Origin: a virus
IMG/VR virus record: IMGVR_UViG_3300034103_002265
Reading direction: 5' to 3' (one strand)
DNA: 64,000 nt
This document shows, one piece after another, positions 4,938-63,814 of the stretch. A program made the translations under genes and the position numbers. Position 1 is the stretch's first letter; every line of letters starts with the position of its first letter. The notes beneath the pieces were generated by a model that worked only from the letters and a program-made list of their open reading frames with translations, was not told where the DNA came from and did not search any database.

Positions 4938-5012
4938 GCGCTAGAGGCTAATTGGAATAGCAAGGGTCTCTAAAGCCCGAGATAGCAGGTTCGATCCCTG
5001 TCTAGCGCACCA
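4938..5012 (+). tRNA. tRNA with CUA anticodon (amber-reading, suppressor-type), CCA encoded
   Basis: Hand-folded cloverleaf: acceptor gcgctag/ctagcgc (7 bp), D arm gcta-attggaa-tagc, anticodon arm agggt-cTCTAaa-gcccg, V agata, T arm gcagg-ttcgatc-cctgt, discriminator A, CCA. Confidence 0.7.
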
Positions 5013-5924: not shown

Positions 5925-6200
5925 ATGAGCAGTGGTAAAATATCGGAAGACCGTAAAACAATATCTTTTGAATTAAACTCCCATCAAATGGTAGGTCATT
6001 TTACACTGGCTCACATAGATGGTAACGAGTTGAACCCAGACAAGATTTACATGAAACTAGATACGCAAATCATTCACGATACTACCAATGTCAACAACAC
6101 GAATAGTATTATAATTGACAAACGATATGCAAAAGTATTATCCATCTGGTTCAAGCATGCCGCAGAATTAATGGACGAATGGTATAAAGAAGAAGATTAA
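5925..6200 (+). CDS. Hypothetical protein
   Basis: 91 aa ORF. Confidence 0.4.
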   Translation: MSSGKISEDRKTISFELNSHQMVGHFTLAHIDGNELNPDKIYMKLDTQIIHDTTNVNNTNSIIIDKRYAKVLSIWFKHAAELMDEWYKEED

Positions 6201-6225
6201 ATAAGAATATTGCTGTAAAGACCGC

Positions 6226-6465
6226 AAGGAAAGATACGACGAGAAATGAGTCTCGGACCCGGGGGCAGTGCCCGGCATCTCCACCTAAGTGTATTTGGTA
6301 TATTTAGGTGGGGATGACACAGTTTCGACGGGGCAAAGAGTAACAGAGTGGACAGCACGGTAGGCGATGACCGTAAATCAAGCAAAATTAATACTCGCAA
6401 ACGACGAAGTATTCGCAATGGCCGCTTGAGGCCTGCTGAGGTAGGAATACCAAGAAACAGAAACT
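6226..6465 (+). ncRNA. ssrA: tmRNA (ssrA), circularly permuted two-piece gene: acceptor piece upstream of coding piece. The 5' end of the acceptor piece is uncertain.
   Basis: Coding piece GGGGATGACACAGTTTCGACGGGG at 6311 closely resembles the canonical tmRNA 5' end. The tag frame GCA AAC GAC GAA GTA TTC GCA ATG GCC GCT TGA (6397..6429) encodes ANDEVFAMAA. Upstream T-arm-like ccggg-ggcagtg-cccgg plus catctcc-A-CC (6283..6296) pairs with GGGGATG including G3.U70. A terminator follows at 6470..6496. Confidence 0.7.
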
Positions 6466-6469
6466 CCAA

Positions 6470-6496
6470 AAGGCTACTTCGGTAGCCTTTTTTTTG
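6470..6496 (+). terminator. Rho-independent terminator
   Basis: aggctac-ttcg-gtagcct followed by T8. Confidence 0.8.
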
Positions 6497-7591: not shown

Positions 7592-8866
7592 ATGAATAAA
7601 CATTTTTGTAGTGCTCCCTGGATTGGAACAACGTTCGAAACAACAGAATCATTTAAACCTTGTTGTTATATCGATAATTCAAAATTGAATATAAAAGCAA
7701 GTTCATTTGAAGAATATTATAATAGCACTGGAATTAAAAATTTAAGAAAACAATTTATAAACGGCGAAAAGCCGGATATGTGTAGAAGGTGTTGGTTATC
7801 GGAAAGCAATGATGAATCTGTTGTAGACAGTATGAGAAAAAGGATGAATATTCAAGCCAAAACTGATAAATTAATGGATAAAATATTTGAACTAACCAAT
7901 GAAGAGGGTGAGGTTTCAAAAAGTATAGTTTCGTGGGCCGATCTTCAATTTTCAAACAAGTGCAATTATAGTTGTATTATTTGTTCTCCATATAGATCAA
8001 GAAGCATAGAAAAAAAATATCTTAAAGAATATAGAATTTTATCTGGAGATATCAAAAAAATAGATCTTGAGAACGATAACGAAAGTAAAATTTTAAATTG
8101 GTTAGAAACAGAGGGATACAAAACAATTAAATTACTGGTTATAAACGGCGGCGAACCTTTTTTACAAGATGGTTTTTATAAAATGTTAGACATTTTTATG
8201 AAAAAGGGTGCAGATAAAGATTGTGTGTTATCGTTATCAACTAATGGATCAATTAGCAAATCTCCCGAAGGAAAAGATGTTATTAATGATTATTTGAAAA
8301 AATGGAATAATACAGTTAAACTTCAAATGAGCATTGATCATCATGGAAAAAAGGGAGAATTTTTAAGACCAGGGTACAGCGACGAAGTTTGGCTATCAAA
8401 CTACAATAAATTTAGCAGAGAAAAAAATATTTCTATAAGGACATCAATAGCATTATCGTTGCTCAATACTCCAACAATACACCAACTTTTTGAAATGTTT
8501 TCAAACAAATTATTACCAGAAACAATCAATTACACTCATTTAGTTCATTCTCCGGAAAGTATTTCTTTTGGTCAAATACAATTAGAAAAAAATCTATTAG
8601 ATACTTCAATAAAAAGTTTAGATGAATCCATAAGAATAATGCAAAGTTTTTCTCCAAAAAATGTAGGACTAATCGAATCCGCAAAAGATGTTTTAGTAAA
8701 AAATTTCAAAGGAAATAAATTTTACTTACCGTATTTTAGAGAAGGTATTCGAGCAATCGAAGTTAGAAAAGATTTAAATTTCTTAGATATTTTTCCAGAA
8801 CATAAACAGTTTTGGGAGTTAAGTCTGCAATCTGGAGCGTACCCAAGACCAAATTTATTAAATTGA
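7592..8866 (+). CDS. Radical SAM domain protein
   Basis: CNYSCIIC (CxxxCxxC) cluster motif plus additional Cys-rich regions. Start chosen at MNKHF, downstream of the terminator. Confidence 0.55.
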   Translation: MNKHFCSAPWIGTTFETTESFKPCCYIDNSKLNIKASSFEEYYNSTGIKNLRKQFINGEKPDMCRRCWLSESNDESVVDSMRKRMNIQAKTDKLMDKIFELTNEEGEVSKSIVSWADLQFSNKCNYSCIICSPYRSRSIEKKYLKEYRILSGDIKKIDLENDNESKILNWLETEGYKTIKLLVINGGEPFLQDGFYKMLDIFMKKGADKDCVLSLSTNGSISKSPEGKDVINDYLKKWNNTVKLQMSIDHHGKKGEFLRPGYSDEVWLSNYNKFSREKNISIRTSIALSLLNTPTIHQLFEMFSNKLLPETINYTHLVHSPESISFGQIQLEKNLLDTSIKSLDESIRIMQSFSPKNVGLIESAKDVLVKNFKGNKFYLPYFREGIRAIEVRKDLNFLDIFPEHKQFWELSLQSGAYPRPNLLN

Positions 8867-10080: not shown

Positions 10081-10476
10081 ATGAACGGAAAAATTACATT
10101 AATCACTCCCCCTGATATTTTTGAAAACGATTCAAGAAGTATTTTATTTTTGCATCTGTCCGATGAAGACCAAGAATCAGTCAGCAAATGGTTGGCACAG
10201 TCAGACATTACGGAAGATATTAATATATACTTTTACGATCATGATAAAGACCTCGATTGGTTGTTTCATGCCTTTGCTAACTGTGATTTCAAATTTATTG
10301 ATATTAGTAGATCTAAAATTGCAACCGGTGTGCTAGTAGGATATTTTTTAGGAAAGAAAAATACTTTCTATAAAATTGATAACGAAACTCAATCAGAAAT
10401 TTTTCAGTACATTAATCAAAATAGAATAACTAATATAAATTCCTTTTTAGAAAGAGCATTAAATGGCAAAAATTGA
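10081..10476 (+). CDS. Hypothetical protein
   Basis: 131 aa ORF. Confidence 0.4.
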   Translation: MNGKITLITPPDIFENDSRSILFLHLSDEDQESVSKWLAQSDITEDINIYFYDHDKDLDWLFHAFANCDFKFIDISRSKIATGVLVGYFLGKKNTFYKIDNETQSEIFQYINQNRITNINSFLERALNGKN

Positions 10477-11695
10477 TTCTAACCATGTTTGTTCATTTTG
10501 TAATAAGAGCAAAGAAGATGTTGAAAAATTGATAGTTGGTGAACAGGCTGCTATATGCAACGACTGTGTAGACCTTTGTGTTGATATTTTAAAGGACGAA
10601 AAAGTTAAAAGTTTACCAATTCAGAAAAAATTGTTAAATCCTGTAGATATTAAAGAATATCTTGATCAATATGTTATTGGCCAAGAAGAAGCAAAAATTG
10701 CCTTAAGCGTGGCAGTCAGTCAGCATTTTAAAAGAATTAATAATCCTAGCAAAGATATTGAACTAGAAAAAACCAACGTGCTGCTGTTAGGACCCACTGG
10801 TTGTGGTAAAACTATGATGGCAAGAAAGATTGCCGAATTCCTAGACTTACCGTTTGCTATCTGCGATGCTACTAGTATTACAGAAGCAGGCTATGTTGGC
10901 GACGATGTTGAAAGTATTTTAACTAGACTAATAAATGAAGCCGACGGCGATATAACAAAGGCCAGTCGTGGAATCGTTTACATAGATGAAATTGATAAAA
11001 TTTCTAAAAAAGGTGAAAATGTCAGCATCACTCGTGATGTAAGTGGTGAAGGTGTTCAGCAAGCATTGTTAAAAATGATAGAAGGTTCTGTATGCAGAGT
11101 TCCTTCATCGGGAAGGCGCAAGCATCCGGGATCTGAAGTTCAAGAAATCGATACAAGAGGAATTCTTTTTATCTGTGGCGGAGCATTTGTTGGTATTGAT
11201 GCTGTTGTTCGACAAAGAAAAGATGCAAAAAGTATTGGCTTTAGTGCTGAAATAAAAACTGATTCTGAAATTAACAACTACTACAGAGAAGTCAATACCA
11301 AGGATCTTATCAAGTATGGTTTGATCCCTGAATTTGTTGGTAGGTTTGGACTTCATATCAACGTTGATGAATTGTCAGTAAAAGAATTAGTTCGAGTATT
11401 GAAAGAACCAAGGAACAGTCTTATTAATCAGTACCAATATCTTTTTAAGTTAGATAAAATTGATCTGACATTTGATGATGAAAGTCTAGAAAGCATAGCG
11501 CAAAAAGCCAAAGAACTTAAAACCAATGCTCGTGGATTAAAAAATATTATAGAAAAGATATTGTTACCTTATCAATTTGATGCTATTAATCTTGTCGAAC
11601 GCGGATTAAATGCAATTAGGATAAGTAAAGACACAGTTGAGGGAAAGACTGCAATACTAATTTTTGATAAAAAGAAAAATGAACAAAACAAATAA
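10463..11695 (+). CDS. clpX: ATP-dependent protease ATPase subunit ClpX-like
   Basis: N-terminal C4 zinc finger (CSFCNK...CNDC), Walker A GPTGCGKT, Walker B IVYIDEIDK, ClpX-like length. Confidence 0.85.
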   Translation: MAKIDSNHVCSFCNKSKEDVEKLIVGEQAAICNDCVDLCVDILKDEKVKSLPIQKKLLNPVDIKEYLDQYVIGQEEAKIALSVAVSQHFKRINNPSKDIELEKTNVLLLGPTGCGKTMMARKIAEFLDLPFAICDATSITEAGYVGDDVESILTRLINEADGDITKASRGIVYIDEIDKISKKGENVSITRDVSGEGVQQALLKMIEGSVCRVPSSGRRKHPGSEVQEIDTRGILFICGGAFVGIDAVVRQRKDAKSIGFSAEIKTDSEINNYYREVNTKDLIKYGLIPEFVGRFGLHINVDELSVKELVRVLKEPRNSLINQYQYLFKLDKIDLTFDDESLESIAQKAKELKTNARGLKNIIEKILLPYQFDAINLVERGLNAIRISKDTVEGKTAILIFDKKKNEQNK

Positions 11696-11942: not shown

Positions 11943-12473
11943 ATGGCAAAACATTTAATGATAGACATGGAGACTATGGCAGTCTCCCCGAGAGCAGTGG
12001 TCCTAACTTTGGGCGCTGTACACTTTAATCCCTGGGGTAATGGTTACAGTGATAAACTTTATTTTAAAGTAAGTCTCGATGATCAGGATGCCTTAGGCAG
12101 AGAAATTGATCCCAACACACTAGATTGGTGGGCAAAACAAGATCCAAAAATAATGGAAGAGGCATTTAGTGCTGATGATAGGATTCCATTATCCGATGCA
12201 ATGGATCAGTTCCATAAGTTTGCTTGGGGTTGCGATGCATTTTGGAGTCACGGTGCTACTTTCGACTTGATGATTATCCAAGATATCTATACACAACTTA
12301 AAAAACCGTTACCTTGGAATTATTGGCAGTTGCGGGATACTCGTACACTATTTGATCTCGGATATGATCCAGACATGCCGCAAGGCAACAAACATGATGC
12401 CCTACAAGATGCTATTCGGCAATCAGTTGGTGTACAAAATATCTATACCAAAATGAAAATAAGGGAAAAATAA
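11943..12473 (+). CDS. DEDDh 3'-5' exonuclease (DnaQ / RNase T-like)
   Basis: Exo I IDMET, ...FDL..., Exo III HDALQDA. Confidence 0.7.
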   Translation: MAKHLMIDMETMAVSPRAVVLTLGAVHFNPWGNGYSDKLYFKVSLDDQDALGREIDPNTLDWWAKQDPKIMEEAFSADDRIPLSDAMDQFHKFAWGCDAFWSHGATFDLMIIQDIYTQLKKPLPWNYWQLRDTRTLFDLGYDPDMPQGNKHDALQDAIRQSVGVQNIYTKMKIREK

Positions 12474-16668: not shown

Positions 16669-16697
16669 TTGACAAGATAATTAAATGACTACATAAT
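16669..16697 (+). promoter_or_regulatory. sigma70-like promoter
   Basis: TTGACA, 17 nt spacer, CATAAT. It heads about 590 nt of ORF-free sequence before 17244. Confidence 0.55.
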
Positions 16698-16881
16698 ATT
16701 GTTATTAAGGCACAAAAATTTTTAGGTAAGGTTCAGCAACATTCCAAACATGGAACTGCTGGGGAGTTGGGTATAGCCGGAGGGTTCGCCCTGTGAAGGT
16801 TATACTTGAAGACAAACCAGATATGCGTGTTTCGATTTTGACGCAGAAAAATACTCAAAGTAGAAAACTTACCTGTTGATT

Positions 16882-17138
16882 CTTAGGATGAATGCAGCAA
16901 TCTAAAACATTAACGAAACCGCTTATTGCAGTAGACGGTGGCCCGGAAGGCTTTATCTAGTAGCAATACTAGACGCTTAAGGAACTGATGACACAGGGGA
17001 AAGTACCTTGTATGATGTTTGTACAGAAAAATACAATCTAGGCGACATGAATTGTATGCTAGGCTTGAGGAACTGAACCGATGTACTGGGGATGAGGTCA
17101 AGCAGAAAATAAAAACCGTTCCGATCATCCTGCTATAT
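16882..17138 (+). repeat. Member of a conserved-terminus element family (putative structured ncRNA), upstream of the vWA gene
   Basis: 5' TTAGGATGAATG-CAGCAA-TCTAAAA and 3' TCATCCTGCTATAT. The termini form a covarying stem with the other family members. Confidence 0.5.
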
Positions 17139-17243
17139 CTAGATTAGGTACAGCAATTTTTTTAATCACCATGAAAAAGACCCGAATCTGGTCGGACACC
17201 GTGATAGGCCCAATGATAACTAATCTGTTGAAAGGAAAAAGAA

Positions 17244-18647
17244 ATGAACGCATTTGTTGAAGCAGTTGAAAATGTTCAACTGGAAACTCGTACCGCAAAT
17301 GGTATGAAGTCTTTTGATTCGTCAAAGTCTGCCCTTGTTGACCTGTTCTTCTCTATCGGTGCAAGCCGTGGTAAGAACCTGAACGTACCGTTTACCAAGG
17401 CTCTCAAGCAGGACGAAACTCTGGCACTACGTCTGTTGATGTGGGCTCGTGACGTTCGTGGCGGAGCCGGTGAACGTCAAATCGTTCGCGACATTCTGTT
17501 GCATTTGGAAAAGAACTATCCAGAAGCACTGGATCGTGTGTTCGCACATATTCCAGAATTTGGTCGTTGGGACGACATGTTGGTCTTTAAGACCAAGCGT
17601 TTTAAGAATCGTGCATACACTATGATCGGTGACGCACTTCGTGCTCGTAACGGTCTGTGTGCCAAGTGGATGCCTCGTCAAGGCTCTATCGCAGTCGAAC
17701 TGCGTAACTTTTTCGGTATGAGCCCAAAGTTCTATCGTAAGAGTCTTGTGTCCTTGACCAAGGTTGTCGAACAAAACATGTGCGCTAACGATTGGACTGG
17801 TATCAACTACAGCCACGTTCCTAGCCTGGCTGCTAGCCGTTACCAAAAGGCTTTTGGCAAGCATGACCCTACAGGGTATGGTGCTTACAAGGCCGCTCTG
17901 GTCAAGGGTGATCCTAGTGTTAAGGTAAATGCAGCCGCAGTTTACCCATATGACGTTATCAAGAGCCGCCGTTTTGGTGGTGCCGATGAAGTCATCCAAG
18001 CACAATGGGATGCGCTGCCTAACTACTGCGGTGACGAACTGGTTCTGCCAGTCTGTGACGTTTCGGGCTCTATGAGTTCGCCAGTAGGTGGTAACGCTAA
18101 CTTGACCTGTATGGATGTCTGTGTCTCGCTGGGCCTATACCTAGCAGACAAGAACAAGGGTCCATTCAAGGATATGTTCCTAACTTTCTCTGAAAAGAGC
18201 AAGTTGCATATCCTTAAGGGCAATCTGCTTGACAAGTTGAACCAACTTGAAAGAGCAGAATGGGGCATGAGCACTAACCTGCACTCGGCATTTGAGGCTG
18301 TCCTCAAGTATGCCAAGGAATGGAAGGTCCCTGAAAAGCACATGCCAAAGTATCTGCTGATCATGAGTGACATGGAATTCAACCACTGCACCAAGTTCGA
18401 TGACTCTGCTATGCAGATGATCGAACGTAAGTATAAGGAAGCAGGATACAATGTTCCTAACATTGTATTTTGGAACCTAAATGCTCGTAGTGGCAACGTT
18501 CCGGTCAAGCATGACAAGCGTGGTGTGGCATTGGTCAGTGGGTTCAGCCCAAGCATCATGACTTCAATCCTAGGTGCGAAGTCTATGGATCCAACATCTG
18601 TGATGTTGGAAACCCTAAACAGCCCACGCTACAGCGTGATCGCTTAA
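17244..18647 (+). CDS. vWA (MIDAS) domain protein, DUF2828/TROVE-like, possibly Ro60-like
   Basis: DVSGSMSS (DxSxS) MIDAS motif; N-terminal ...TANGMKSF...LFFSIG...ARDVRGGAGER; 467 aa. Confidence 0.5.
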   Translation: MNAFVEAVENVQLETRTANGMKSFDSSKSALVDLFFSIGASRGKNLNVPFTKALKQDETLALRLLMWARDVRGGAGERQIVRDILLHLEKNYPEALDRVFAHIPEFGRWDDMLVFKTKRFKNRAYTMIGDALRARNGLCAKWMPRQGSIAVELRNFFGMSPKFYRKSLVSLTKVVEQNMCANDWTGINYSHVPSLAASRYQKAFGKHDPTGYGAYKAALVKGDPSVKVNAAAVYPYDVIKSRRFGGADEVIQAQWDALPNYCGDELVLPVCDVSGSMSSPVGGNANLTCMDVCVSLGLYLADKNKGPFKDMFLTFSEKSKLHILKGNLLDKLNQLERAEWGMSTNLHSAFEAVLKYAKEWKVPEKHMPKYLLIMSDMEFNHCTKFDDSAMQMIERKYKEAGYNVPNIVFWNLNARSGNVPVKHDKRGVALVSGFSPSIMTSILGAKSMDPTSVMLETLNSPRYSVIA

Positions 18648-18664: not shown

Positions 18665-18728
18665 AAGGCCCTTAGGGGCCTTTTTTATTGTTTGGATAAA
18701 TGCCCACTTTACAGTGGGCGTTTTTTTC
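18665..18728 (+). terminator. Two tandem Rho-independent terminators
   Basis: aaggccc-ttag-gggcctt plus T-run, then gcccact-ttaca-gtgggc plus T7. Confidence 0.75.
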
Positions 18729-18792: not shown

Positions 18793-19821
18793 ATGTCTAA
18801 GAAGTACGGTACACTAGTATATATTGGCAGGTTTCAACCGGTTCATACCGCACATATTGAAACTATTCGTCGTGCCACAGAGTTGGCTCGACAAGTTGTA
18901 ATTATCGTAGGTAGTGCTAACCAACCGCGTACCTACAAGAATCCGTTTACCAGCAAAGAACGGGAAGCCATGTTGATCGGTGCTCTGCGTGGTGTTGGTG
19001 ATCCGACATGTTCAATTCACGTTGACCACAACATCGACACCATTTACAACGATCAGGCTTGGGCTACCCGTGTACAGGGTATCCATAGCAAGTATCGTGT
19101 TCTTGGTACCAAGGATGGCATTATCGGCCATGACAAGGACGAAACCACTTTCTATCTTAAAATGTTCCCGCAATGGGAGCGTGTGGATGTAGAATTGATT
19201 GAGCCACTGAACGCCACTGATATCCGCGACATTTATTTCCGTCGTGATGCTAATCTAAACTTCTTGCGTGGGGTAGTTCCGCAATCTACAATGCAGTTTC
19301 TCAATAGTTTCAAGGAAACACATGCATACGAACAAGTTGTCCGTGAACGTGAATTCATTGCGAATTATCGTAAGCAATATGAAAGTCTGCCCTATCCTCC
19401 AGTATTCGTTACTGTGGATTCAGTAGTGATTCAGAGTGGGCATGTGTTGATGATTCGTCGTCGTAGTGAACCTGGTAAGGGATTGTGGGCATTGCCTGGT
19501 GGATTCCTGAATGCTGCTAGTGACCGTAGTGTACGTGATGCTGCCATTCGTGAACTACGTGAAGAAACTGGCATCAAAGTTCCTGCTCCGGTTTTGACAG
19601 GAAGTATCAAAGATGTTAAAGTTTTTGATGCTGTGGAACGTAGTGCCAGGGGCAGGACAATCACACATGCCTTCAAGATCGTGTTGCCTGATGGCGAACT
19701 GCCTAAGGTCAAGGGACAAGATGATGCTGATCGTGCCCGTTGGGTGCCACTAGTAGATGTTAAGTCAGACGAATGTTTTGAAGATCATTGGGAAATTATT
19801 CAACATTTTGTAGGAGCCTAA
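18793..19821 (+). CDS. nadM: Bifunctional NMN adenylyltransferase / Nudix hydrolase (NadM-Nudix)
   Basis: GRFQPVHTAH nucleotidyltransferase motif and Nudix box GLWALPGGFLNAASDRSVRDAAIRELREETG. Confidence 0.85.
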   Translation: MSKKYGTLVYIGRFQPVHTAHIETIRRATELARQVVIIVGSANQPRTYKNPFTSKEREAMLIGALRGVGDPTCSIHVDHNIDTIYNDQAWATRVQGIHSKYRVLGTKDGIIGHDKDETTFYLKMFPQWERVDVELIEPLNATDIRDIYFRRDANLNFLRGVVPQSTMQFLNSFKETHAYEQVVREREFIANYRKQYESLPYPPVFVTVDSVVIQSGHVLMIRRRSEPGKGLWALPGGFLNAASDRSVRDAAIRELREETGIKVPAPVLTGSIKDVKVFDAVERSARGRTITHAFKIVLPDGELPKVKGQDDADRARWVPLVDVKSDECFEDHWEIIQHFVGA

Positions 19822-23133: not shown

Positions 23134-24531
23134 ATGAAGTTAGCAAGAAACATTATCCTGAACACAGACTCATACAAGGTCTCCATGTTCAACCAATACC
23201 CACTAGGAACCACTGGTGTTTATTCGTATATCGAAAGTCGAGGGGGTCGATACGATAGAACTGTATTCTTCGGACTACAGGCTTTTATCAAGGAATACCT
23301 GCTTGAGCCCATCACTCAAGCAGACATCGAAATTGCTGAAGAAATTCTTACCGCACACGGTGAGCCCTTTAACCGCCAAGGATGGCAATACATTCTGGAT
23401 AAGCACGGTGGATTTCTCCCAGTTGTTATCCGAGCCGTCCCAGAAGGAACAGTTGTACCGGTTAAGAATGTACTTGCCACAATTGAAAACACTGACCCAG
23501 AATGCTTCTGGCTGACCACTTGGCTAGAAACTGCTCTGCTACGTGCTATTTGGTATCCAACCACTGTAGCAACACAGAGTTGGCATATTCGTCAACTTAT
23601 TCTTAACTATTTGGAGAAGACCGGTGATCCTAGCCTCATTGATTTTAAACTTCATGACTTTGGTGCTCGTGGTGTATCTAGCCTTGAGTCTGCTGGAATC
23701 GGTGGAGCGGCGCATCTCGTTAACTTTATGGGCACGGACACTATTAGTGGCGTCCTGTATGCTCGTGAATATTACAATGCTGGTGTTGCTGGCTTCAGTA
23801 TTCCTGCCGCCGAACACAGTACAATCACTAGTTGGGGTCGTGACGGGGAGGTAAAGGCATATGAAAACATGGTTAAGCAGTTTGGCCGGCCTGGGTCTAT
23901 TTTTGCAGTGGTCAGCGATAGTTATGATATTTACAACGCGGCATCAAAGCTATGGGGTGAAGAACTTCGCCAGAAGGTTATTGATAGTGGCGCTACCCTT
24001 GTCATCCGTCCTGACAGTGGCGATCCTGTTGAGGTAAATAGTAGACTAATCCAAATTTTGGATAGCAAGTTTGGGAGTACGGTAAATGCCAAGGGATTCC
24101 GAGTTCTCAATAACGTCAGGCTTATCCAAGGAGACGGGATCAACTACAACTCTATTAAGAGTATTCTCGATGCTCTTATGGCCCTTGGCTATAGTGCCGA
24201 TAATATCGCTTTTGGTATGGGCGGTGCCTTACTTCAACAAGTGGATCGCGATACTCAAAAGTTTGCTATGAAGGCTAGTTCGGTTTGTATCAATGGTCAG
24301 TGGATTTCAATTGCCAAGGACCCAGTTACTGATCCAGGCAAGAAGAGCAAGGCTGGTCGTGTTACTCTTTGGAAGAGCGGCAGTGAATTGGTCAGTTCTG
24401 CAGAACAACCACATGGTTGGTATGATCGTAGTGTAGGTGAATTCCACGAAGTGCTAGAAACTGTGTTTGAAAACGGTGTATTGGTCAAGGAAATCAACTT
24501 TGATCAAGTCCGTGCAAACAGCAGGAAATGA
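23134..24531 (+). CDS. nadV: Nicotinamide phosphoribosyltransferase (NAMPT / NadV)
   Basis: N-terminal NIILNTDSYKVSMFNQYP; 465 aa, NAMPT-like length; RBS aaggag. Confidence 0.9.
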   Translation: MKLARNIILNTDSYKVSMFNQYPLGTTGVYSYIESRGGRYDRTVFFGLQAFIKEYLLEPITQADIEIAEEILTAHGEPFNRQGWQYILDKHGGFLPVVIRAVPEGTVVPVKNVLATIENTDPECFWLTTWLETALLRAIWYPTTVATQSWHIRQLILNYLEKTGDPSLIDFKLHDFGARGVSSLESAGIGGAAHLVNFMGTDTISGVLYAREYYNAGVAGFSIPAAEHSTITSWGRDGEVKAYENMVKQFGRPGSIFAVVSDSYDIYNAASKLWGEELRQKVIDSGATLVIRPDSGDPVEVNSRLIQILDSKFGSTVNAKGFRVLNNVRLIQGDGINYNSIKSILDALMALGYSADNIAFGMGGALLQQVDRDTQKFAMKASSVCINGQWISIAKDPVTDPGKKSKAGRVTLWKSGSELVSSAEQPHGWYDRSVGEFHEVLETVFENGVLVKEINFDQVRANSRK

Positions 24532-45892: not shown

Positions 45893-46654
45893 ATGCGAGC
45901 AACAGAGTTTATTACAGAAAAAAAACACAAAAAGCAAAAGACAAAACATGCTGCTTACGGACCGGGTCCATATGGATGGTATGGTTTTGATTCAGGATAT
46001 AGCGGTGATGGGGGCGGTATTGAAGAAAGTCAACACGATCAATCAGCAGAAAAATACCGTGAACATTTAATTAAGACATTGCCACAGATAATGAAGTTTT
46101 TTGACCAAGCCGTTAAAGGCTGGAAGCCTTCTGAGGAACAAATGATGGCTGCTATCGAAACTGCTTATACTGTAATGAAGCACACCGGAGATATAAAACA
46201 AGCAGGCCGTGCAATGATGGATGAATTAAACACTTTGCATAGAATGAGTCAGGGTCAGCAAGGTGTGGCGGAAAGTGGAAATAAAAAAGAAGCAGTTCGT
46301 CGAATACAAAAAATGTTAAACAAGAAATTTAATGCTAATTTAGATATTGATGGTATTCTAGGGCCTCTTACACTGCAATCGATAAACAAATTTATGCCTA
46401 GTGCAAAGGTGGGGCTTGCTGACGAGCCGAATAAAACTACATCTGTTCAGGGTAAAACTATTAAAAAGAAAGATATAGAGGAAAACTTTGCTGATGGTCG
46501 AAATCCTCAAGACAAAGGAGATGCAAAGCGACACGGAATTAATACCAAAGCATCTGTAAGTAGCCTACGTAAAACTGCTAAACAAGGTGGTCGTAAAGGA
46601 CAGTTAGCACATTGGTTAGCAAATATGAAAGCAGGAAGAGCCAAGGCTAAATGA
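45893..46654 (+). CDS. Protein with a peptidoglycan-binding domain
   Basis: LDIDGILGPLTLQSINKFM (PG_binding_1-like) and a Gly-rich N-terminus. Confidence 0.45.
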   Translation: MRATEFITEKKHKKQKTKHAAYGPGPYGWYGFDSGYSGDGGGIEESQHDQSAEKYREHLIKTLPQIMKFFDQAVKGWKPSEEQMMAAIETAYTVMKHTGDIKQAGRAMMDELNTLHRMSQGQQGVAESGNKKEAVRRIQKMLNKKFNANLDIDGILGPLTLQSINKFMPSAKVGLADEPNKTTSVQGKTIKKKDIEENFADGRNPQDKGDAKRHGINTKASVSSLRKTAKQGGRKGQLAHWLANMKAGRAKAK

Positions 46655-48702
46655 AAAAAATATTGTTAAACCCGTGGACAGCACTTATTACTTTGATGCT
46701 AGTTGTGGGTGTTAGATTTTTAGATCCTAGTTTTATAGAATCAGTTAGATTGCGTTATTTTGATCAATTGATTATAAGTCAACCCGAAAAGCCTGTTCCT
46801 GTACACACTGTTAATGTCGATGAAGCAGCATTAGAAAAATATGGGCAATGGCCTTTTCCTCGAAACCTATATGCAGAAATTATTAAAGAATTATACAATA
46901 GAGATGCTGGTCTTGTTGTTTTTAATGTATTAATGCCAGAAAAAGATAGATTTAATCAAGATAAAACTTTAGCAGAAACAATTAAAGAATATCCTGTAGT
47001 ATTACCTGCTCTAGGAAGCACCAAAGGAAAAAATACTGATCATGGCAGTTCAGTTCAAATTGTAGGACAAGATCCTAGTGGAAAAATTGTAGAGTATCCT
47101 GGATTAATTAATAGTGTAGATCAAATTTCTAAACTAGCACTGGGAATCGGAATTGCTAATACATTTCCAGAAATAGATGGTGTAGTGCGTAGGATGCCGT
47201 TAATCATTATTGCAGGTGGTAATGTTCATGCTGCATTAAGTTTAGAAACATTGAGAGCAGCAGGAGATGATAAAATTCAAGTAAAGATAAATGACATCGG
47301 TGTAGAAGCAGTTAGAATTCCCAGTGTTGGAAGATTTAATACAGATGACTTATCTAGAATATGGATCGATTGGGCAGCAAAACCTCAAGAACATAGTCTT
47401 GCAAATTTACCTAGAAGTTTTGATAAAGGCATAGTTGTAGTGGGTTTGAGTGCAGCAGGTTTAGTAAATCCGATAGCAACTGCTCGAGGAGAAGTTTGGC
47501 CTCAGTATTTGCAGGCCAGTGTAATGGGAACTATGCTATCTGAATCGAGTATTCAGCGTCCAGGATATGCAGATACATATGAAATAATTGCTATCATAGT
47601 AGCAGGCATAATTTTAATATTTTTAATGAGGTGGACATATGTGGGCATTGCGGCAACTGTGGTTACGATTGGTGGGGTTATTGCTGGCAGCATTTATTCT
47701 TACAGTAACTTTTCAATACTATACGACTCAACTGCCTTTGCAGTTGGCGTTGGATTGGTCGCTTTGCACGCCTACATGGTCAAGTTCGTTTCAGAATTCT
47801 TACAAAAACAACAGATCAGAAAACAGTTCCAAAGTTACCTTAGCCCCGACCTCGTAGCCAAATTGATCAAAGATCCTAGCCTATTAAAACTCGGAGGTGA
47901 AGAAAAAGAACTAAGTATCATGTTTACTGATGTTCGAGGATTTACCAGCATCAGTGAACATTATGGTAAAGATGTGCAAGGTTTAACAAAAATTATGAAT
48001 CGCTATATGACAGCGATGACTCGTAAGATTTTAGAAAATGATGGAACCCTAGACAAGTACATAGGTGATGCACAAATGGCATTCTGGAACGCTCCTTTAG
48101 ATGAAACACAACATTGTAAGGATGCAGTAAAAGCAGCATTGGAAATGTTAGATGACTTGGATAAATTTAATGATGAAATTACCAAAGAAGGTATTCCGGC
48201 TTTTGGTATGGGTCTTGGTATTAATACTGGCATTGTTGTTGTTGGTAACATGGGCAGTGAGCAACGTTTTGATTATACTTGTCTTGGCGATGCTGTCAAT
48301 CTTGCTTCCCGACTTGAAGGACAGTCTAAAAACTACGGTGTCAAAATTGTTCTGGGTCCCGTAACTGCTGAACGCTTAGGCGATGATTACTTTACACTTG
48401 AGTTAGATTGTATAGCCGTTAAGGGAAAAAAAGAAGGTGTAACAATTTATACTGTATTCCGAAATCCTAATGCAGGTTCTATACCAGAATGGATAATGGC
48501 TAAAGAGAAACATAATGAAATGTTAAAACTCTATAGACAACAAAAATGGGACAAAGCAGTTGGATTAGTTAACAAACTTCAGGGAGAATTCGATGGACAA
48601 ATGGAACACTATTATGAGTTATGGATCGAACGCATTGAAGAAATGCGTAGTGCTAACCTTCCTGGTAATTGGGACGGCGTATTCAGAGCCCAAAGCAAGT
48701 GA
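46651..48702 (+). CDS. CHASE2 sensor / class III adenylate (nucleotidyl) cyclase
   Basis: N-terminal TM plus CHASE2-like periplasmic region. Cyclase core FTDVRGFTSISE...YIGDAQMAFWNAP...GINTGIVVVGNMGS...GDAVNLASRLEG. Confidence 0.8.
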   Translation: MKKILLNPWTALITLMLVVGVRFLDPSFIESVRLRYFDQLIISQPEKPVPVHTVNVDEAALEKYGQWPFPRNLYAEIIKELYNRDAGLVVFNVLMPEKDRFNQDKTLAETIKEYPVVLPALGSTKGKNTDHGSSVQIVGQDPSGKIVEYPGLINSVDQISKLALGIGIANTFPEIDGVVRRMPLIIIAGGNVHAALSLETLRAAGDDKIQVKINDIGVEAVRIPSVGRFNTDDLSRIWIDWAAKPQEHSLANLPRSFDKGIVVVGLSAAGLVNPIATARGEVWPQYLQASVMGTMLSESSIQRPGYADTYEIIAIIVAGIILIFLMRWTYVGIAATVVTIGGVIAGSIYSYSNFSILYDSTAFAVGVGLVALHAYMVKFVSEFLQKQQIRKQFQSYLSPDLVAKLIKDPSLLKLGGEEKELSIMFTDVRGFTSISEHYGKDVQGLTKIMNRYMTAMTRKILENDGTLDKYIGDAQMAFWNAPLDETQHCKDAVKAALEMLDDLDKFNDEITKEGIPAFGMGLGINTGIVVVGNMGSEQRFDYTCLGDAVNLASRLEGQSKNYGVKIVLGPVTAERLGDDYFTLELDCIAVKGKKEGVTIYTVFRNPNAGSIPEWIMAKEKHNEMLKLYRQQKWDKAVGLVNKLQGEFDGQMEHYYELWIERIEEMRSANLPGNWDGVFRAQSK

Positions 48703-60559: not shown

Positions 60560-60626
60560 TTTTAGGATGCTTCCAGCAAATTAAATAACTTTTTATTTGA
60601 AAAAAGCAAAACAGCATCCTGTTATT
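60560..60626 (+). repeat. Conserved-terminus element, member 1
   Basis: 5' TTTAGGATGCTTCCAGCAAA ... 3' AGCATCCTGTTAT, with an 8-bp terminal inverted repeat. Confidence 0.5.
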
Positions 60627-60720: not shown

Positions 60721-60811
60721 GGAAGGTCAAATCGATTGGTGACGAAAACTGTCTTGAAAACAGCCGAGTGTTAATAACGCCTTGAGGGTTCGACTCCCTT
60801 GCCTTCCGCCA
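60721..60811 (+). tRNA. tRNA-Ser(UGA), class II
   Basis: GTCTTGAAAACAG anticodon arm; 91 nt with a long variable arm. Confidence 0.75.
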
Positions 60812-60819
60812 CAAAAATG

Positions 60820-60848
60820 TTGACAAGTTCCATTGATGGTAGCATAAT
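60820..60848 (+). promoter_or_regulatory. sigma70-like promoter
   Basis: TTGACA, 17 nt spacer, CATAAT. The predicted start site coincides with 60855. Confidence 0.55.
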
Positions 60849-60854
60849 TACTAT

Positions 60855-60968
60855 GCGACCGTGAGTGGAAACATGGCAGACCTCCAAAAATACATTGTAT
60901 GTATTGAGGGAAGGCACAAAGACCTAGTCACCGTAGCCTTGTAGGTTCGAATCCTACCGGTCGTACCA
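60855..60968 (+). ncRNA. 114-nt tRNA-like RNA (good acceptor and T arm, irregular interior)
   Basis: Acceptor gcgaccg/cggtcgt, T arm gtagg-ttcgaat-cctac, discriminator A, CCA. Interior holds hairpin aatac-attgtat-gtatt and direct repeats agacc. Confidence 0.4.
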
Positions 60969-61234: not shown

Positions 61235-61308
61235 TTTTTAGGATCGATTCAGCAAACTAAAAAACTCAATCTTTCAAATTGACTAAAAAGACGATCCTGT
61301 TGTATAAT
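61235..61308 (+). repeat. Conserved-terminus element, member 2
   Basis: 5' TTTTAGGATCGATTCAGCAAA ... 3' CGATCCTGTTGTATAAT. Confidence 0.5.
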
Positions 61309-61477: not shown

Positions 61478-61722
61478 TATTGAAGCACATTCTACCCATC
61501 TGTGGCACGGAACGGAGTCGTCACAGAATGGCGAAAAGACCCGTTTGAGTGTGTTTCAATATGGCTAGACGATAGTTTTGAGTCCCACACAACCTAGCGT
61601 AAGGACTCACTTATGCGACTACAACAGAGTGGTTGAACCGTGGTAGTTAAACTTGACTATCGAGACAATCCATCGAGGCCTCCTAGCACCCAGGGAGGAT
61701 AGGTGGGCTGCCAGACTATATT

Positions 61723-62000: not shown

Positions 62001-62066
62001 ATTTTAGGATGCATACAGCAAACAAAAACATACTGCAAATATGGTAAAAAACGCATCCTGTTATAT
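62001..62066 (+). repeat. Conserved-terminus element, member 3
   Basis: 5' TTTTAGGATGCATACAGCAAA ... 3' GCATCCTGTTATATTTG. Confidence 0.5.
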
Positions 62067-62320: not shown

Positions 62321-62398
62321 GCCCGTGTAGCGCAATAGGTAGAGGCGACAGACTTAAAATCTGTAAAGGTGCGAGTTCGAATCTCGCCACGGGTACCA
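62321..62398 (+). tRNA. tRNA-Leu(UAA) with a short (6-nt) variable region
   Basis: Anticodon arm acaga-ctTAAaa-tctgt, A73, 78 nt. Confidence 0.7.
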
Positions 62399-62404
62399 AA
62401 CATT

Positions 62405-62528
62405 GCCGCTGTAGCTCAATTGGATAGAGCGCTAAAGAAGGTGATCCTGTCTTTAGGATACATACAGCAAATTTTTCAATCCACTGATAATGGAGAGGTT
62501 TCTGGTTCGAATCCAGACGGCGGCACCA
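62405..62528 (+). pseudogene. tRNA-Ile(GAU)-like gene carrying a 47-nt insertion between the D and anticodon arms
   Basis: A canonical 5' part (gccgctg-ta-gctc-aattggata-gagc) and 3' part (tcca-cTGATAa-tgga, T arm, cggcggc-A-CCA) are separated by ...GATCCTGTCTTTAGGATACATACAGCAAA..., which carries the element-family termini. Confidence 0.5.
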
Positions 62529-62609: not shown

Positions 62610-62626
62610 ATTTTTAGGAGCACTGT

Positions 62627-62758
62627 TATGGCACATAACAAAAAAGGCAATCTTACTCGCAGTCCTCAATGGTGGAAGCATCTAAAGGATTGGAAACGTG
62701 TTTGGCATAAACAAGAACGCCAAGCGTACAAAAAAGAGATTGACAAGGCAACGAGTTG
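62627..62758 (+). CDS. Small basic protein (43 aa) within the tRNA array
   Basis: RBS aggag, then MAHNKKGNLTRSPQWWKHLKDWKRVWHKQERQAYKKEIDKATS. Confidence 0.35.
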
Positions 62759-62875
62759 ATCATAAAATATTGAAACTGAAACAAAGGAGAATGACATGAA
62801 ACGAGGTAAACTCTAGTGTCATCCTAGTACTCCGTATGGTCTAGGGTGGCACGTAAAATCAAAAAGTACGAACAC

Positions 62876-63447: not shown

Positions 63448-63562
63448 TTTAGGGATGACTACAGCAATCTTAAAATACTCTTACCATTCTCAAGAGGCCG
63501 GCCCGCTGGGGGTAGTGTCATGGGTTCGAGTCCCGGTTTTAGACACAGCATCCCGTTTTATT
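63448..63562 (+). repeat. Conserved-terminus element, member 5, enclosing a tRNA-like T arm
   Basis: 5' TTTAGGGATGACTACAGCAATCTTAAAA ... internal GC-rich tgggttcgagtccc T-arm-like hairpin ... 3' GCATCCCGTTTTAT. Confidence 0.5.
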
Positions 63563-63814
63563 ATTCAATGTTCGAGCTAACGCAGGAAACTGAGGAAGTT
63601 CGGGACTTGTGGCAAGTGCGTGTGGGAGATGGTACTGAATTTGAGATGAGTAAATGTCGCGGTAATCAATCCGTACAGCCATCGTCTTACCACCGTGATA
63701 TAACAAGCAACACAAACAGAACTAGGTAACACTTGCACTATTAGTTCGGGTTGTGGCGAAGATGAATGTTAGCATAGAACAGAATCCCGGCTACGGAACA
63801 TTGAATTTTTTTAT

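Follow-up and report, generated by a model that had tools for sequence, protein, structure and literature searches.

Bacterial Y RNAs are encoded within 4 kb of a Ro60 gene and on the same strand, and most contacts of Ro60 with the Y RNA stem are made to the 5′ strand (PMC4201824). YrlA RNAs are defined by the sequence GNCGAAN0-1G near the 5′ end together with V, T, acceptor-like and D stem-loops (PMC4201824). Among phages, the Ro60 protein of the Thermus phage phiLo binds two upstream Y-like RNAs (PMC12135203), and the Ro60-like protein gp130 of the Felixounavirus Bas63, encoded beside an array of transfer RNA (tRNA) genes, counters the Ppl defence system (PMC11482910). Here we describe a family of small elements in a 64,000-nucleotide (nt) stretch of viral DNA (IMG/VR record IMGVR_UViG_3300034103_002265; the whole stretch is referred to below as the window). 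The elements have paired ends and a shared CAGCAA motif, and they are located in the leader of a gene for a Ro60-like protein of the DUF2828 family (17244-18647) and in a tRNA array.

These elements are probably small non-coding RNA (ncRNA) genes built on a common protein-binding handle, whose most likely ligand, by analogy with Ro60, is the neighbouring DUF2828 protein. Since the same pairing of RNA and gene recurs in phages of three phyla, the elements are probably undescribed RNA partners of this Ro60-like protein. They are best read, again by analogy, as RNAs that would function like Y RNAs yet form a separate RNA family with a different protein-side motif. A preliminary description of the window had proposed Y-RNA-like ncRNAs paired with a Ro60-like gene, and this proposal is supported by covariation of the terminal stem, by the recurrence of the pairing across phyla and by YrlA-like modules in related copies. 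No description of these RNAs was found in the literature within reach, the coverage of which was limited, and no RNA ligand of DUF2828 proteins is described in Rfam or in the same literature.

The CAGCAA handle and what it encloses

The window is DNA of an uncultured phage, probably a jumbo phage, and relatives of its proteins are found on contigs of up to 375 kb. A megablast comparison of the locus and the tRNA array with GenBank phages returned no close relative. A scan for a stem arm followed by 3 nt, CAGCAA and, further on, the complementary arm yielded seven complete elements (A-G; Table 1), every one on the + strand and non-coding. Three of these (A, B and C) are arranged in tandem in the gene leader and four (D-G) lie in the tRNA array. 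All follow the plan UUUU-(7-bp 5′ arm, mostly AGGAUNN)-N3-CAGCAA-(30-240 nt)-(3′ arm)-GUU. The string TAGG-N2-9-CAGCAA occurs 11 times in the window against an expectation of 0.71, and none of 100 shuffles reached this number. The window stems are AGGTAAG, AGGATGA, AGATTAG, AGGATGC(T), AGGATCG, AGGATGC and GGGATG; for each the exact complement is present, and the compensatory changes at the termini that the preliminary description had quoted are correct.

All six copies listed in that description were recovered, either at the same coordinates or a few bases away. Its single leader copy corresponds to B, but A and C had been missed, so that the leader contains three tandem elements rather than one. 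The copy placed inside a tRNA (62441-62478) is present as a closed, permuted form (copy H) and not as a half copy. Four copies had been said to sit exactly between tRNAs; this applies to D, E and F, but G touches a tRNA only on its 5′ side. The sigma70 promoter noted at 16669 was found as a sigma70-like site, and with this promoter ahead of A and terminator-like hairpins after the gene, the locus forms a delimited unit of promoter, A, B, C, gene and terminator.

Table 1. Positions of the elements and of the features associated with them in the window.
Feature	Position	Strand	Remarks
Sigma70-like promoter, head of leader	16669-16697	+	TTGACA-17-CATAAT; 11/12 consensus matches; predicted from consensus only
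Element A	16724-16874	+	151 nt; arms AGGTAAG/CTTACCT; CAGCAA 16734-16739
Element B	16885-17131	+	247 nt; arms AGGATGA/TCATCCT; CAGCAA 16895-16900
Element C	17141-17226	+	86 nt; arms AGATTAG/CTAATCT; CAGCAA 17151-17156
DUF2828+DUF7788 protein gene	17244-18647	+	467 amino acids
Two terminator-like hairpins with T runs	18665-18723	+	18665-18682 and 18698-18723
Element D	60564-60620	+	57 nt; short class; between tRNA-Asp (end 60557) and tRNA-Pro (start 60634)
Element E	61240-61298	+	59 nt; between tRNA-Trp and tRNA-Ile
Element F	62006-62059	+	54 nt; between tRNA-Asp and tRNA-Ile
tRNA-like gene hosting copy H	62405-62525	+	121 nt; copy H at 62444-62470; tRNA model 45.5 bits
Element G	63452-63554	+	103 nt; directly 3′ of tRNA-Val

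Covariation of the terminal stem, first seen as 7-8 bp in the window, is strong and extends well outside it, to related contigs with 44 different stems. An exact-pattern scan of IMG/VR with TTTAGGATN5CAGCAA retrieved 120 loci, many of them with several matches. Among 153 distinct matches to TTTAGGATNN...CAGCAA, the exact 7-nt complement occurs downstream (within 400 nt) in 116 cases and upstream in only 3; the expectation, taken from the 15 wrong dinucleotides that could fill the two free stem positions, is 4.8. When only AG...CAGCAA was fixed (AG-N5-N3-CAGCAA), 221 of 315 sites in related contigs paired at all five free positions and continued with CUG, as compared with 4.8 of these candidates in permuted-stem controls. 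An alignment of 80 short elements displayed double changes in 6 of the 7 pairs and gave a covariation score of 0.59, versus 0.13 for shuffles and at most 0.12 for slid registers; the alignment was chosen for pairing, and thus only the variety of pair types in it is informative.

A covariance model (R1) was built from the 80 short elements with the window excluded. R1 matched D, E and F at 68.5, 62.9 and 59.6 bits (E 1e-12 to 1e-14), C at 31.2 bits (E 2.6e-5) and, weakly, G (18.9 bits), H (17.5 bits), A and B, with every match on the + strand. The model was trained on one AU-rich clade, and on Clostridia-type loci it returned 7 matches versus 82 obtained with the rule of stem, N3, CAGCAA and G; given this low sensitivity, it is not a family-wide detector. 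The consensus of the short elements is UUUU-AG...CU-GUU, with CAGCAA invariant and a U two nt ahead of it 83% conserved. Across phyla, only A-R-R at the base of the stem, CAGCAA and the 3′ G are kept, and the stem sequence drifts between lineages (AGGAU.., AGACC.., UGGAC.., AAGGCAC). Other candidate features were considered and dropped. Pairing between CAGC and the 3′ GUUG lacks conservation, as does, across phyla, an extended -10 promoter in the 3′ flank, and RNase III sites would need a longer stem.

The sequence between the two arms varies widely. Of 231 distinct elements, 114 fall into a length peak of 50-69 nt and 63 into one of 90-119 nt, with minor groups near 160 nt and at 200-260 nt. 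Members of the short class (peak 50-62 nt), which includes D, E and F, consist of an A-rich linker and one small hairpin. Sixty short elements have 7-nt loops, and 41 of the 60 read Y-U-NNN-R, mostly as CU-NNN-AA on 5-bp stems, when about 5 would be expected by chance according to a rough base-composition estimate. A Y-U-NNN-R loop on a 5-bp stem is the signature of an anticodon arm; the ‘anticodons’ displayed by the short class are UUU (13), UGU (9), UCU (4), GUA (3) and others. The inner hairpin of E is UCAAU-CUUUCAA-AUUGA, with a 7-nt loop like that of an anticodon arm, and the inner loop of F is CUGCAAA by reading of the sequence (the automatic hairpin call gave a 6-nt loop).

Larger portions of tRNA are found in longer elements. 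Those of 95-100 nt contain D, anticodon and T arms and are thus tRNA bodies in which the handle replaces the acceptor stem. In a class of ∼112 nt, a hairpin is followed by a T arm, a closed acceptor hairpin and a D arm, which is the order found in YrlA, and in Cronobacter phage S13 the acceptor 3′ strand of this class is followed by ACCA. Within the window, tRNA-like content is confined to the T arm of G and the whole tRNA around H; in D, E and F its place is taken by an anticodon-arm mimic. Element G combines a V-like hairpin with the T-arm-like sequence GGGUUCGAGUCCC. The T-arm-like GGGTTCGAGTCCC that the preliminary description had noticed in this copy is real and is conserved in four orthologous elements; in the resulting five-sequence alignment the T arm GGGUUCGAnUCCC is invariant, and the terminal stem and the hairpin covary.

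Elements A and B belong to conserved classes of larger RNAs. The A-class is characterised by a long central hairpin, a GAGUUUCGA hairpin and then AAAGUAGAAAAC ahead of the 3′ arm, and a nine-sequence alignment of A contains compensatory changes in 21 of 33 predicted pairs. The B-class is represented by 11 orthologues in related contigs. In such contigs the orthologues of A and B occupy the same position upstream of the gene, and orthologues of C are found at L009:4202 and L034:865.

Copy H differs from the others in topology. It runs 3′ arm-GUCUUU-5′ arm-AUA-CAGCAA and is located between the D arm and the anticodon arm of a tRNA-like gene that has an acceptor stem, a D arm, an anticodon arm (loop CUGAUAA), a T arm and CCA. 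Closed, permuted handles of this type recur in 113-121-nt calls of ‘tRNA-Ser’ or ‘tRNA-OTHER’ in Cronobacter phage S13 and Citrobacter phage Ci1, and the S13 ‘tRNAs’ at L121:7896-8016 and 8026-8138 have the same layout as the gene at 62405-62525. Because the helix, the CAGCAA strand and the A-rich strand are kept through changes of topology and cargo, the handle behaves like a binding platform. The over-long annotations in these two phages (L121 7896-8016 and 8026-8138; L126 10012-10125), among them a ‘tRNA-Pseudo’, are complete tRNAs with GCAAACU-GAYA-AGUUUGU-AUU-CAGCA between the D and anticodon arms.

Association of the elements with a Ro60-like DUF2828 gene

The product of 17244-18647 matches Pfam DUF7788 (3e-52) and DUF2828 (1e-24). 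It contains a MIDAS (metal ion-dependent adhesion site) motif, D272-x-S274-x-S276, of which D272, S274 and S276 are invariant in 38 homologues. An AlphaFold2 model of moderate confidence was obtained (predicted local distance difference test 75.6, predicted template modelling (TM) score 0.71). The top Foldseek match to this model was the Ro60 protein of phiLo (E 5e-7, TM 0.51-0.54 over ∼500 columns), with D. radiodurans Rsr second (E 3e-6) and thereafter von Willebrand factor A (vWA) domains only, at E ≥9e-3. The predicted architecture is a HEAT-repeat ring followed by a vWA domain, as in Ro60/TROVE proteins. On the strength of this model, the protein is Ro60-like by predicted fold, yet it belongs to a separate sequence family.

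Homologues of DUF2828 were found in at least 709 GenBank phage records and in thousands of metagenomic protein clusters. They carry names such as ‘RNA-binding protein’ and, in mycobacteriophages, ‘Ro-like RNA binding protein’. The gene is present in all 251 Felixounavirus-type records matched by the gene of Salmonella phage Si3; judging from this and from the description and position of Bas63 gp130 in PMC11482910, gp130 may also be a member of the DUF2828 family. ‘Structural protein’ is the annotation given to some homologues (Pectobacterium phage CBB, Erwinia phage pEa_SNUABM_12), so the DUF2828 protein or its ribonucleoprotein (RNP) might be packaged in virions.

Co-occurrence of RNA and gene was assessed with a strict rule (perfect 7-bp stem, 3-nt linker, CAGCAA, and G after the 3′ arm). 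In 13 cultured-phage loci (177 kb) chosen by protein similarity, 35 elements were found on the gene strand and 0 on the opposite strand. The locus of Aeromonas phage LAh_9 contains eight, of which six are in tandem within 450 nt upstream of the gene, and no tRNA is annotated in it. Ralstonia phage RSP15 has six elements, situated inside the tRNA arrays around the gene, and Salmonella phage Si3 (Felixounavirus) has three, situated inside the tRNA array just downstream. Elements lie directly upstream of the gene in Listeria phage P100plus (three), Campylobacter phage CP39 (two) and Enterococcus phage VRE9_4 (one), and directly downstream in Staphylococcus phage S-CoN_Ph6 and Mycobacterium phage Samty (three each). 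The pairing is thus represented in cultured phages of Proteobacteria, Firmicutes and Actinobacteria.

A further 80 loci from bacterial genomes and metagenome-assembled genomes were retrieved by two peptide patterns of the protein, blind to the RNA. Under the strict rule, 82 elements share the strand of the gene and 1 lies opposite, with at least one element in 38 of the 80 loci and up to seven in tandem directly upstream. The gene is present in 36 of the 120 loci that were retrieved through the RNA motif alone, usually preceded directly by 1-3 elements, the last 3′ arm abutting the ribosome-binding site (RBS); more distant relatives have the elements immediately downstream of the gene. Such flips between upstream and downstream positions from lineage to lineage are as expected for a partner that acts in trans.

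A number of minor observations were made at these loci. Two elements are present directly upstream of a DUF2828 gene in the complete chromosome of Oscillibacter valericigenes Sjm18-20 (L169 2570-2835). Several GenBank open reading frame (ORF) calls overlap elements and are probably wrong: Samty gp55 (L127 6583-6777), S-CoN_Ph6 CDS0028 (L129 7519-7608) and the N-terminal extension of LAh_9 gp043 (L123 5896-6000), whose homology begins at 6001. Genes for RNA-repair or tRNA enzymes were seen no more than a few kb from the DUF2828 gene, namely RtcB in Listeria phage P100plus (L128 8851-10062), RNA ligase 2 (Rnl2) in LAh_9 (L123 11100-12023) and a CCA-adding enzyme in S13 (L121 12280-13320) and Ci1 (L126 13908-14993).

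Comparison with Y RNAs, Class I RNAs and other small RNAs

The locus resembles Ro60-Y RNA systems in several respects. A gene for a ring-plus-vWA protein stands beside one to several small RNAs on the same strand, the RNA ends pair into a stem, and a conserved single-stranded motif lies next to the 5′ strand. As with bacterial Y RNAs, A, B and C are on the strand of the gene and no more than 4 kb from it, although the protein is Ro60-like by fold only. Both systems occur in phages, and in several phages RtcB, Rnl2 or CCA-adding enzyme genes are nearby. In related loci, the hairpins of the ∼112-nt class (V, T, closed acceptor, D) follow the order seen in YrlA, and the Rfam YrlA model aligns over its full length to the related sequence L030:2097-2212 with 30.8 bits (E 7e-5), the gathering score being 69. 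In contrast to YrlA, most members carry only an anticodon-stem-loop mimic, which is absent from YrlA; in contrast to Y RNAs, the handle also occurs circularly permuted in complete tRNAs, and there are up to 7-8 tandem copies. At gathering thresholds, Rfam searches of the window and 12 related loci identified only tRNA and tmRNA, and at E-value thresholds the informative matches were limited to sub-threshold hits of YrlA and of the Dictyostelid Class I model.

Class I RNAs (RF01414) are ∼60 nt long (42-65), start with AAG, end with CUGU and have a 6-bp covarying terminal stem; an 11-nt motif, CCUUACAGCAA, adjoins the 5′ arm, the rest is variable, and the RNAs have been reported as unique to Dictyostelia (PMC7919456). 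Their known direct binder is Rnp1A, a protein with an RNA recognition motif, and a pull-down also contained GuaB, NdkC and the uncharacterised DDB_G0281243 (bioRxiv 10.1101/2020.04.05.026054). Among Rfam models, Dicty_Class_I_RNA fits the short elements best and aligns over its full length (1-56). It matches D (32.7 bits), F (26.8) and C (15) end to end, and seven tandem elements of LAh_9 at 18-29.6 bits, all below the gathering score of 41.5. Class I sequences of D. discoideum read GUUGAC-CUUA-CAGCAA-...-GUCAAC-UG.

The likeness to Class I RNAs includes a length of ∼55-60 nt, a covarying terminal stem that begins with (A)AG and ends with CUG(U), a motif ending in CAGCAA right after the 5′ arm, an A-rich run ahead of the 3′ arm, variable sequence elsewhere and many copies per genome. 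They differ in that the phage linker is 1 nt shorter and otherwise variable, and all scores are sub-gathering. Furthermore, Class I RNAs are eukaryotic and have the Dictyostelium upstream sequence element (DUSE) promoter, whereas the elements described here are found in a phage with sigma70-like promoters. A peptide-motif search of part of the Dictyostelium proteome returned one unrelated vWA protein. The resemblance may reflect homology, a shared protein partner or convergence. It is conceivable, if doubtful, that the CAGCAA-handle RNAs of phages and the Class I RNAs are one class, ligands of DUF2828 proteins (a family with eukaryotic members), in which the handle displays interchangeable parts of tRNA. 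If so, they would represent a third, cross-kingdom branch of Ro/Y-type RNPs, and the anticodon loops Lys-UUU, Thr-UGU, Arg-UCU and Tyr-GUA would be displayed to tRNA-directed enzymes, possibly as decoys for the anticodon nucleases of defence systems.

Stable RNAs of unknown function are found in phage tRNA clusters, as illustrated by species 1 and 2 of phage T4. The annotation of T5 (NC_005859) contains eight ‘stable RNAs with unknown functions’ in the tRNA region (RNAI, RNAIII, RNA1, RNA2 and others), some of which are tRNA-like. Like the elements in our array, the T4 and T5 RNAs are small, in part tRNA-like, interleaved with tRNA genes and presumably freed by tRNA processing; in contrast, no CAGCAA handle or linked Ro60-like gene has been described for them. 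The T5 tRNA region (50 kb, 20000-69999) gave no R1 match at E ≤1 with filters off, and as no T5 stable RNA matches the handle model, these are a different kind of RNA.

Permuted tRNA genes occur in Cyanidioschyzon, and armless tRNAs occur in nematode mitochondria. The ∼112-nt class resembles the former, being composed of T arm, acceptor 3′ strand, loop, acceptor 5′ strand and D arm, and the short class approximates the latter, with the equivalent of an acceptor stem and an anticodon arm only. Unlike either, the elements carry an invariant CAGCAA handle that is foreign to tRNAs.

Proposed mechanism, alternative explanations and other features of the window

In the mechanism that we propose, A-C would be transcribed from the 16669 promoter as the leader of the mRNA of the DUF2828 protein, and D-G would be transcribed within the tRNA array. 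RNase P and the 3′ processing of the flanking tRNAs would free D, E and F; other ends would probably arise when endonucleases cut within the U/A-rich flanks and the products are trimmed as far as the protected stem. The handle presented by the mature RNA would consist of the 7-bp end helix, the 3-nt linker and single-stranded CAGCAA on the 5′ side, and the A-rich strand and G(U) on the 3′ side. Inserts would differ from one RNA to the next (the anticodon-stem-loop mimic in D, E and F, a tRNA body, a YrlA-like permuted tRNA domain, or the larger folds of A, B and C), and a loop-closed handle could also be placed within a tRNA that is complete in other respects, as in H. Co-occurrence and the analogy with Ro60 suggest that the DUF2828 protein would bind this handle.

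More speculatively, a tRNA-like insert could engage tRNA-directed factors and so act as a tether, as a Y RNA tethers Ro60 to PNPase, or it could act as a decoy, drawing off anticodon nucleases or other enzymes involved in defence or processing. It is equally speculative that binding at C, by the RBS, might allow the protein to repress its own translation. The tether or titration idea draws on circumstantial evidence, including the RtcB, Rnl2 and CCA-adding enzyme genes near the DUF2828 gene, an exoribonuclease encoded in the window and the reported activity of Bas63 gp130 against Ppl.

Several observations weigh against the proposal that the elements are RNA partners of the DUF2828 protein. 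The motif next to the 5′ arm is N3-CAGCAA, and neither the GNCGAAN0-1G of YrlA nor the bulged GGUCCGA helix of animal Y RNAs is present. The Y RNA likeness put forward in the preliminary description is not reflected in Rfam: Y_RNA (RF00019) and YrlA (RF02553) had no match on any window element, neither model reached threshold on the window, and the sole YrlA row in it (62370-62430, 27.7 bits) is partial and spans a tRNA junction. The same description had taken the vWA protein to be Ro60/TROVE-like. Its MIDAS and a predicted Ro60-like fold, detected with Foldseek, bear this out in part, but Pfam TROVE does not match the product of 17244-18647. Unlike Ro60, the protein is a combination of DUF2828 and DUF7788, and when PDB sequences were searched with a profile of its family, nothing came below E 0.28 and no solved Ro60 was found.

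Other points on this side concern the pairing and the RNAs themselves. Elements D-G are 43-46 kb from the gene. Under the strict rule, Citrobacter phage Ci1 has closed variants only and phage Lak-B7 has none, and 42 of the 80 protein-selected loci have no match within 3 kb, many of these loci being incomplete and the pattern strict enough to miss divergent copies. Minimum-free-energy z-scores of B (-0.38), C (0.30), E (-0.73) and G (0.04) are unremarkable, it is conjecture that the inserts act as tethers or decoys, and a host factor could be the reader of the handle instead. Given that the Ro-binding motif is absent and that no Rfam threshold was reached, the pair would work like Ro60 and Y RNA, with neither partner a member of those families.

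Alternatively, the elements may be processing or stability ‘punctuation’ that is read by host enzymes (RNase P, RNase E, RNase III, exonucleases), gives the transcripts of the tRNA array and the mRNA their shape and has no specific link to DUF2828. Their setting in tRNA arrays is in keeping with this, since 66 of the 231 elements are sandwiched between tRNAs with stereotyped spacing (6-7 nt from the tRNA 3′ end to the 5′ arm, 10-11 nt from the end of the 3′ arm to the next tRNA), the stem, at 7 bp, is as long as an acceptor stem, and the flanks are U/A-rich. We nevertheless regard this explanation as unlikely. The handle adjoins the DUF2828 gene in phages without neighbouring tRNAs and in those of hosts with different RNase sets (Listeria, Staphylococcus, Mycobacterium, Campylobacter, Clostridia), the T5 tRNA array does without it, and the closed version in complete tRNAs offers no free ends for processing.

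It is likewise improbable that the leader copies A-C are purely cis-regulatory, as an autoregulatory operator or attenuator of the DUF2828 mRNA. The 3′ arm of C is followed by GUUG and the RBS AAAGGA, with 4 nt from arm end to RBS, and at many other loci too the last element stops a few nt ahead of the RBS (...CU-G-AAAGGA); in the window no terminator stands between RNAs and gene. These features would suit such a role. However, it would leave several things unaccounted for: copies that lie in tRNA arrays or on the downstream side of the gene (Samty, Staphylococcus, S13, Si3), tRNA-like inserts and as many as 7-8 tandem copies. Regulation of this kind is also compatible with binding by the DUF2828 protein, as an extra role of the last copy.

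Much less probable is that the short elements are reduced, ‘armless’ tRNAs or tRNA pseudogenes, with a role or an origin in translation and with the handle as a degenerate acceptor stem. The combination of a 7-bp terminal stem with a 5-bp stem and 7-nt CU-NNN-AA loop, the location in tRNA arrays and the full tRNA bodies of some copies would fit, but CCA and a discriminator context are missing, nothing in tRNAs corresponds to the invariant CAGCAA, tRNA likeness is lacking in many inserts (A, B, C), the gene association persists in phages without tRNA arrays, and neither ARAGORN nor the Rfam tRNA model gives a call on the elements. Despite their terminal inverted repeats and multiple copies, the resemblance of the 3′ end and flank of E (61279-61308) to a sigma70 promoter, and a core of ∼12 conserved nucleotides comparable to those of small ribozymes, the elements are very unlikely to be miniature inverted-repeat mobile elements (the arms covary rather than stay conserved, with 44 stems, the strand bias is 35:0 and 82:1, no target-site duplications were seen, and orthologous copies keep their position across contigs), terminators (the arms are 30-240 nt apart with no T runs after them, and a scan called no terminator at any element), promoter cassettes (in the 3′ flank, G(U) alone is kept from phylum to phylum) or a new self-cleaving ribozyme (no Rfam ribozyme matched, and the tolerance of any insert size at the would-be catalytic core makes one unlikely).

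If the elements are indeed RNA partners of the DUF2828 protein, a domain of unknown function would become a testable RNP with an easily recognised RNA component, for which cultivable model phages are available (Felix O1/Bas63, Listeria P100/A511, Aeromonas LAh_9 and cluster L mycobacteriophages). They would explain why phage tRNA arrays contain unannotated gaps and ‘tRNA-OTHER’ calls of excessive length, and they flag several ORF calls as probably spurious. The family bears on how Bas63 gp130 counters Ppl, on why phages carry tRNA-like RNAs, and on the role of the Dictyostelium Class I RNAs, a puzzle since 2004. A handle that tolerates nearly any insert, as well as circular permutation, may also be of use in engineering.

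Apart from the elements, the window contains 26 tRNA genes at 60.2-64 kb, one transfer-messenger RNA (tmRNA) gene and many auxiliary metabolic genes. The phage tmRNA (6194-6520) was called by ARAGORN as permuted, with the tag peptide ANDEVFAMAA, and its region matches Rfam tmRNA_permuted (119.5 bits, 6232-6429) and beta_tmRNA (118.8 bits, 6189-6492). Far from the main array, a tRNA with anticodon CUA (4938-5012), designated ‘tRNA-Pyl’ by ARAGORN, is amber-suppressor-like. Genes were also identified for an Rv2179c-like 3′-5′ exoribonuclease (11943-12473), a ClpX-like ATPase (10463-11695), NadM/Nudix (18793-19821), NAMPT of NAD salvage (23134-24531) and a CHASE2-nucleotide cyclase (46651-48702). 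By analogy, the exoribonuclease could be relevant if the RNP works with a nuclease, as Ro60 does.

Within the array, two tRNA-like sequences were not called by ARAGORN. One, at 60721-60807, has the anticodon loop CUUGAAA and reaches 44.4 bits under the tRNA-Sec model, whose gathering score is 47; the other, at 60850-60967, has a T arm, an acceptor strand and ACCA at its end together with a long internal insert. Further unexplained gaps are located at 61478-61722, 62610-62875 and 63563-63814. Sigma70 sites with 11/12 matches lie at 60820-60848 and 62740-62768, and the 3′ part of E with its flank (61279-61308) contains a near-consensus TTGACT-18-TATAAT immediately before tRNA-Ile, so that internal promoters in the array are possible on sequence grounds.

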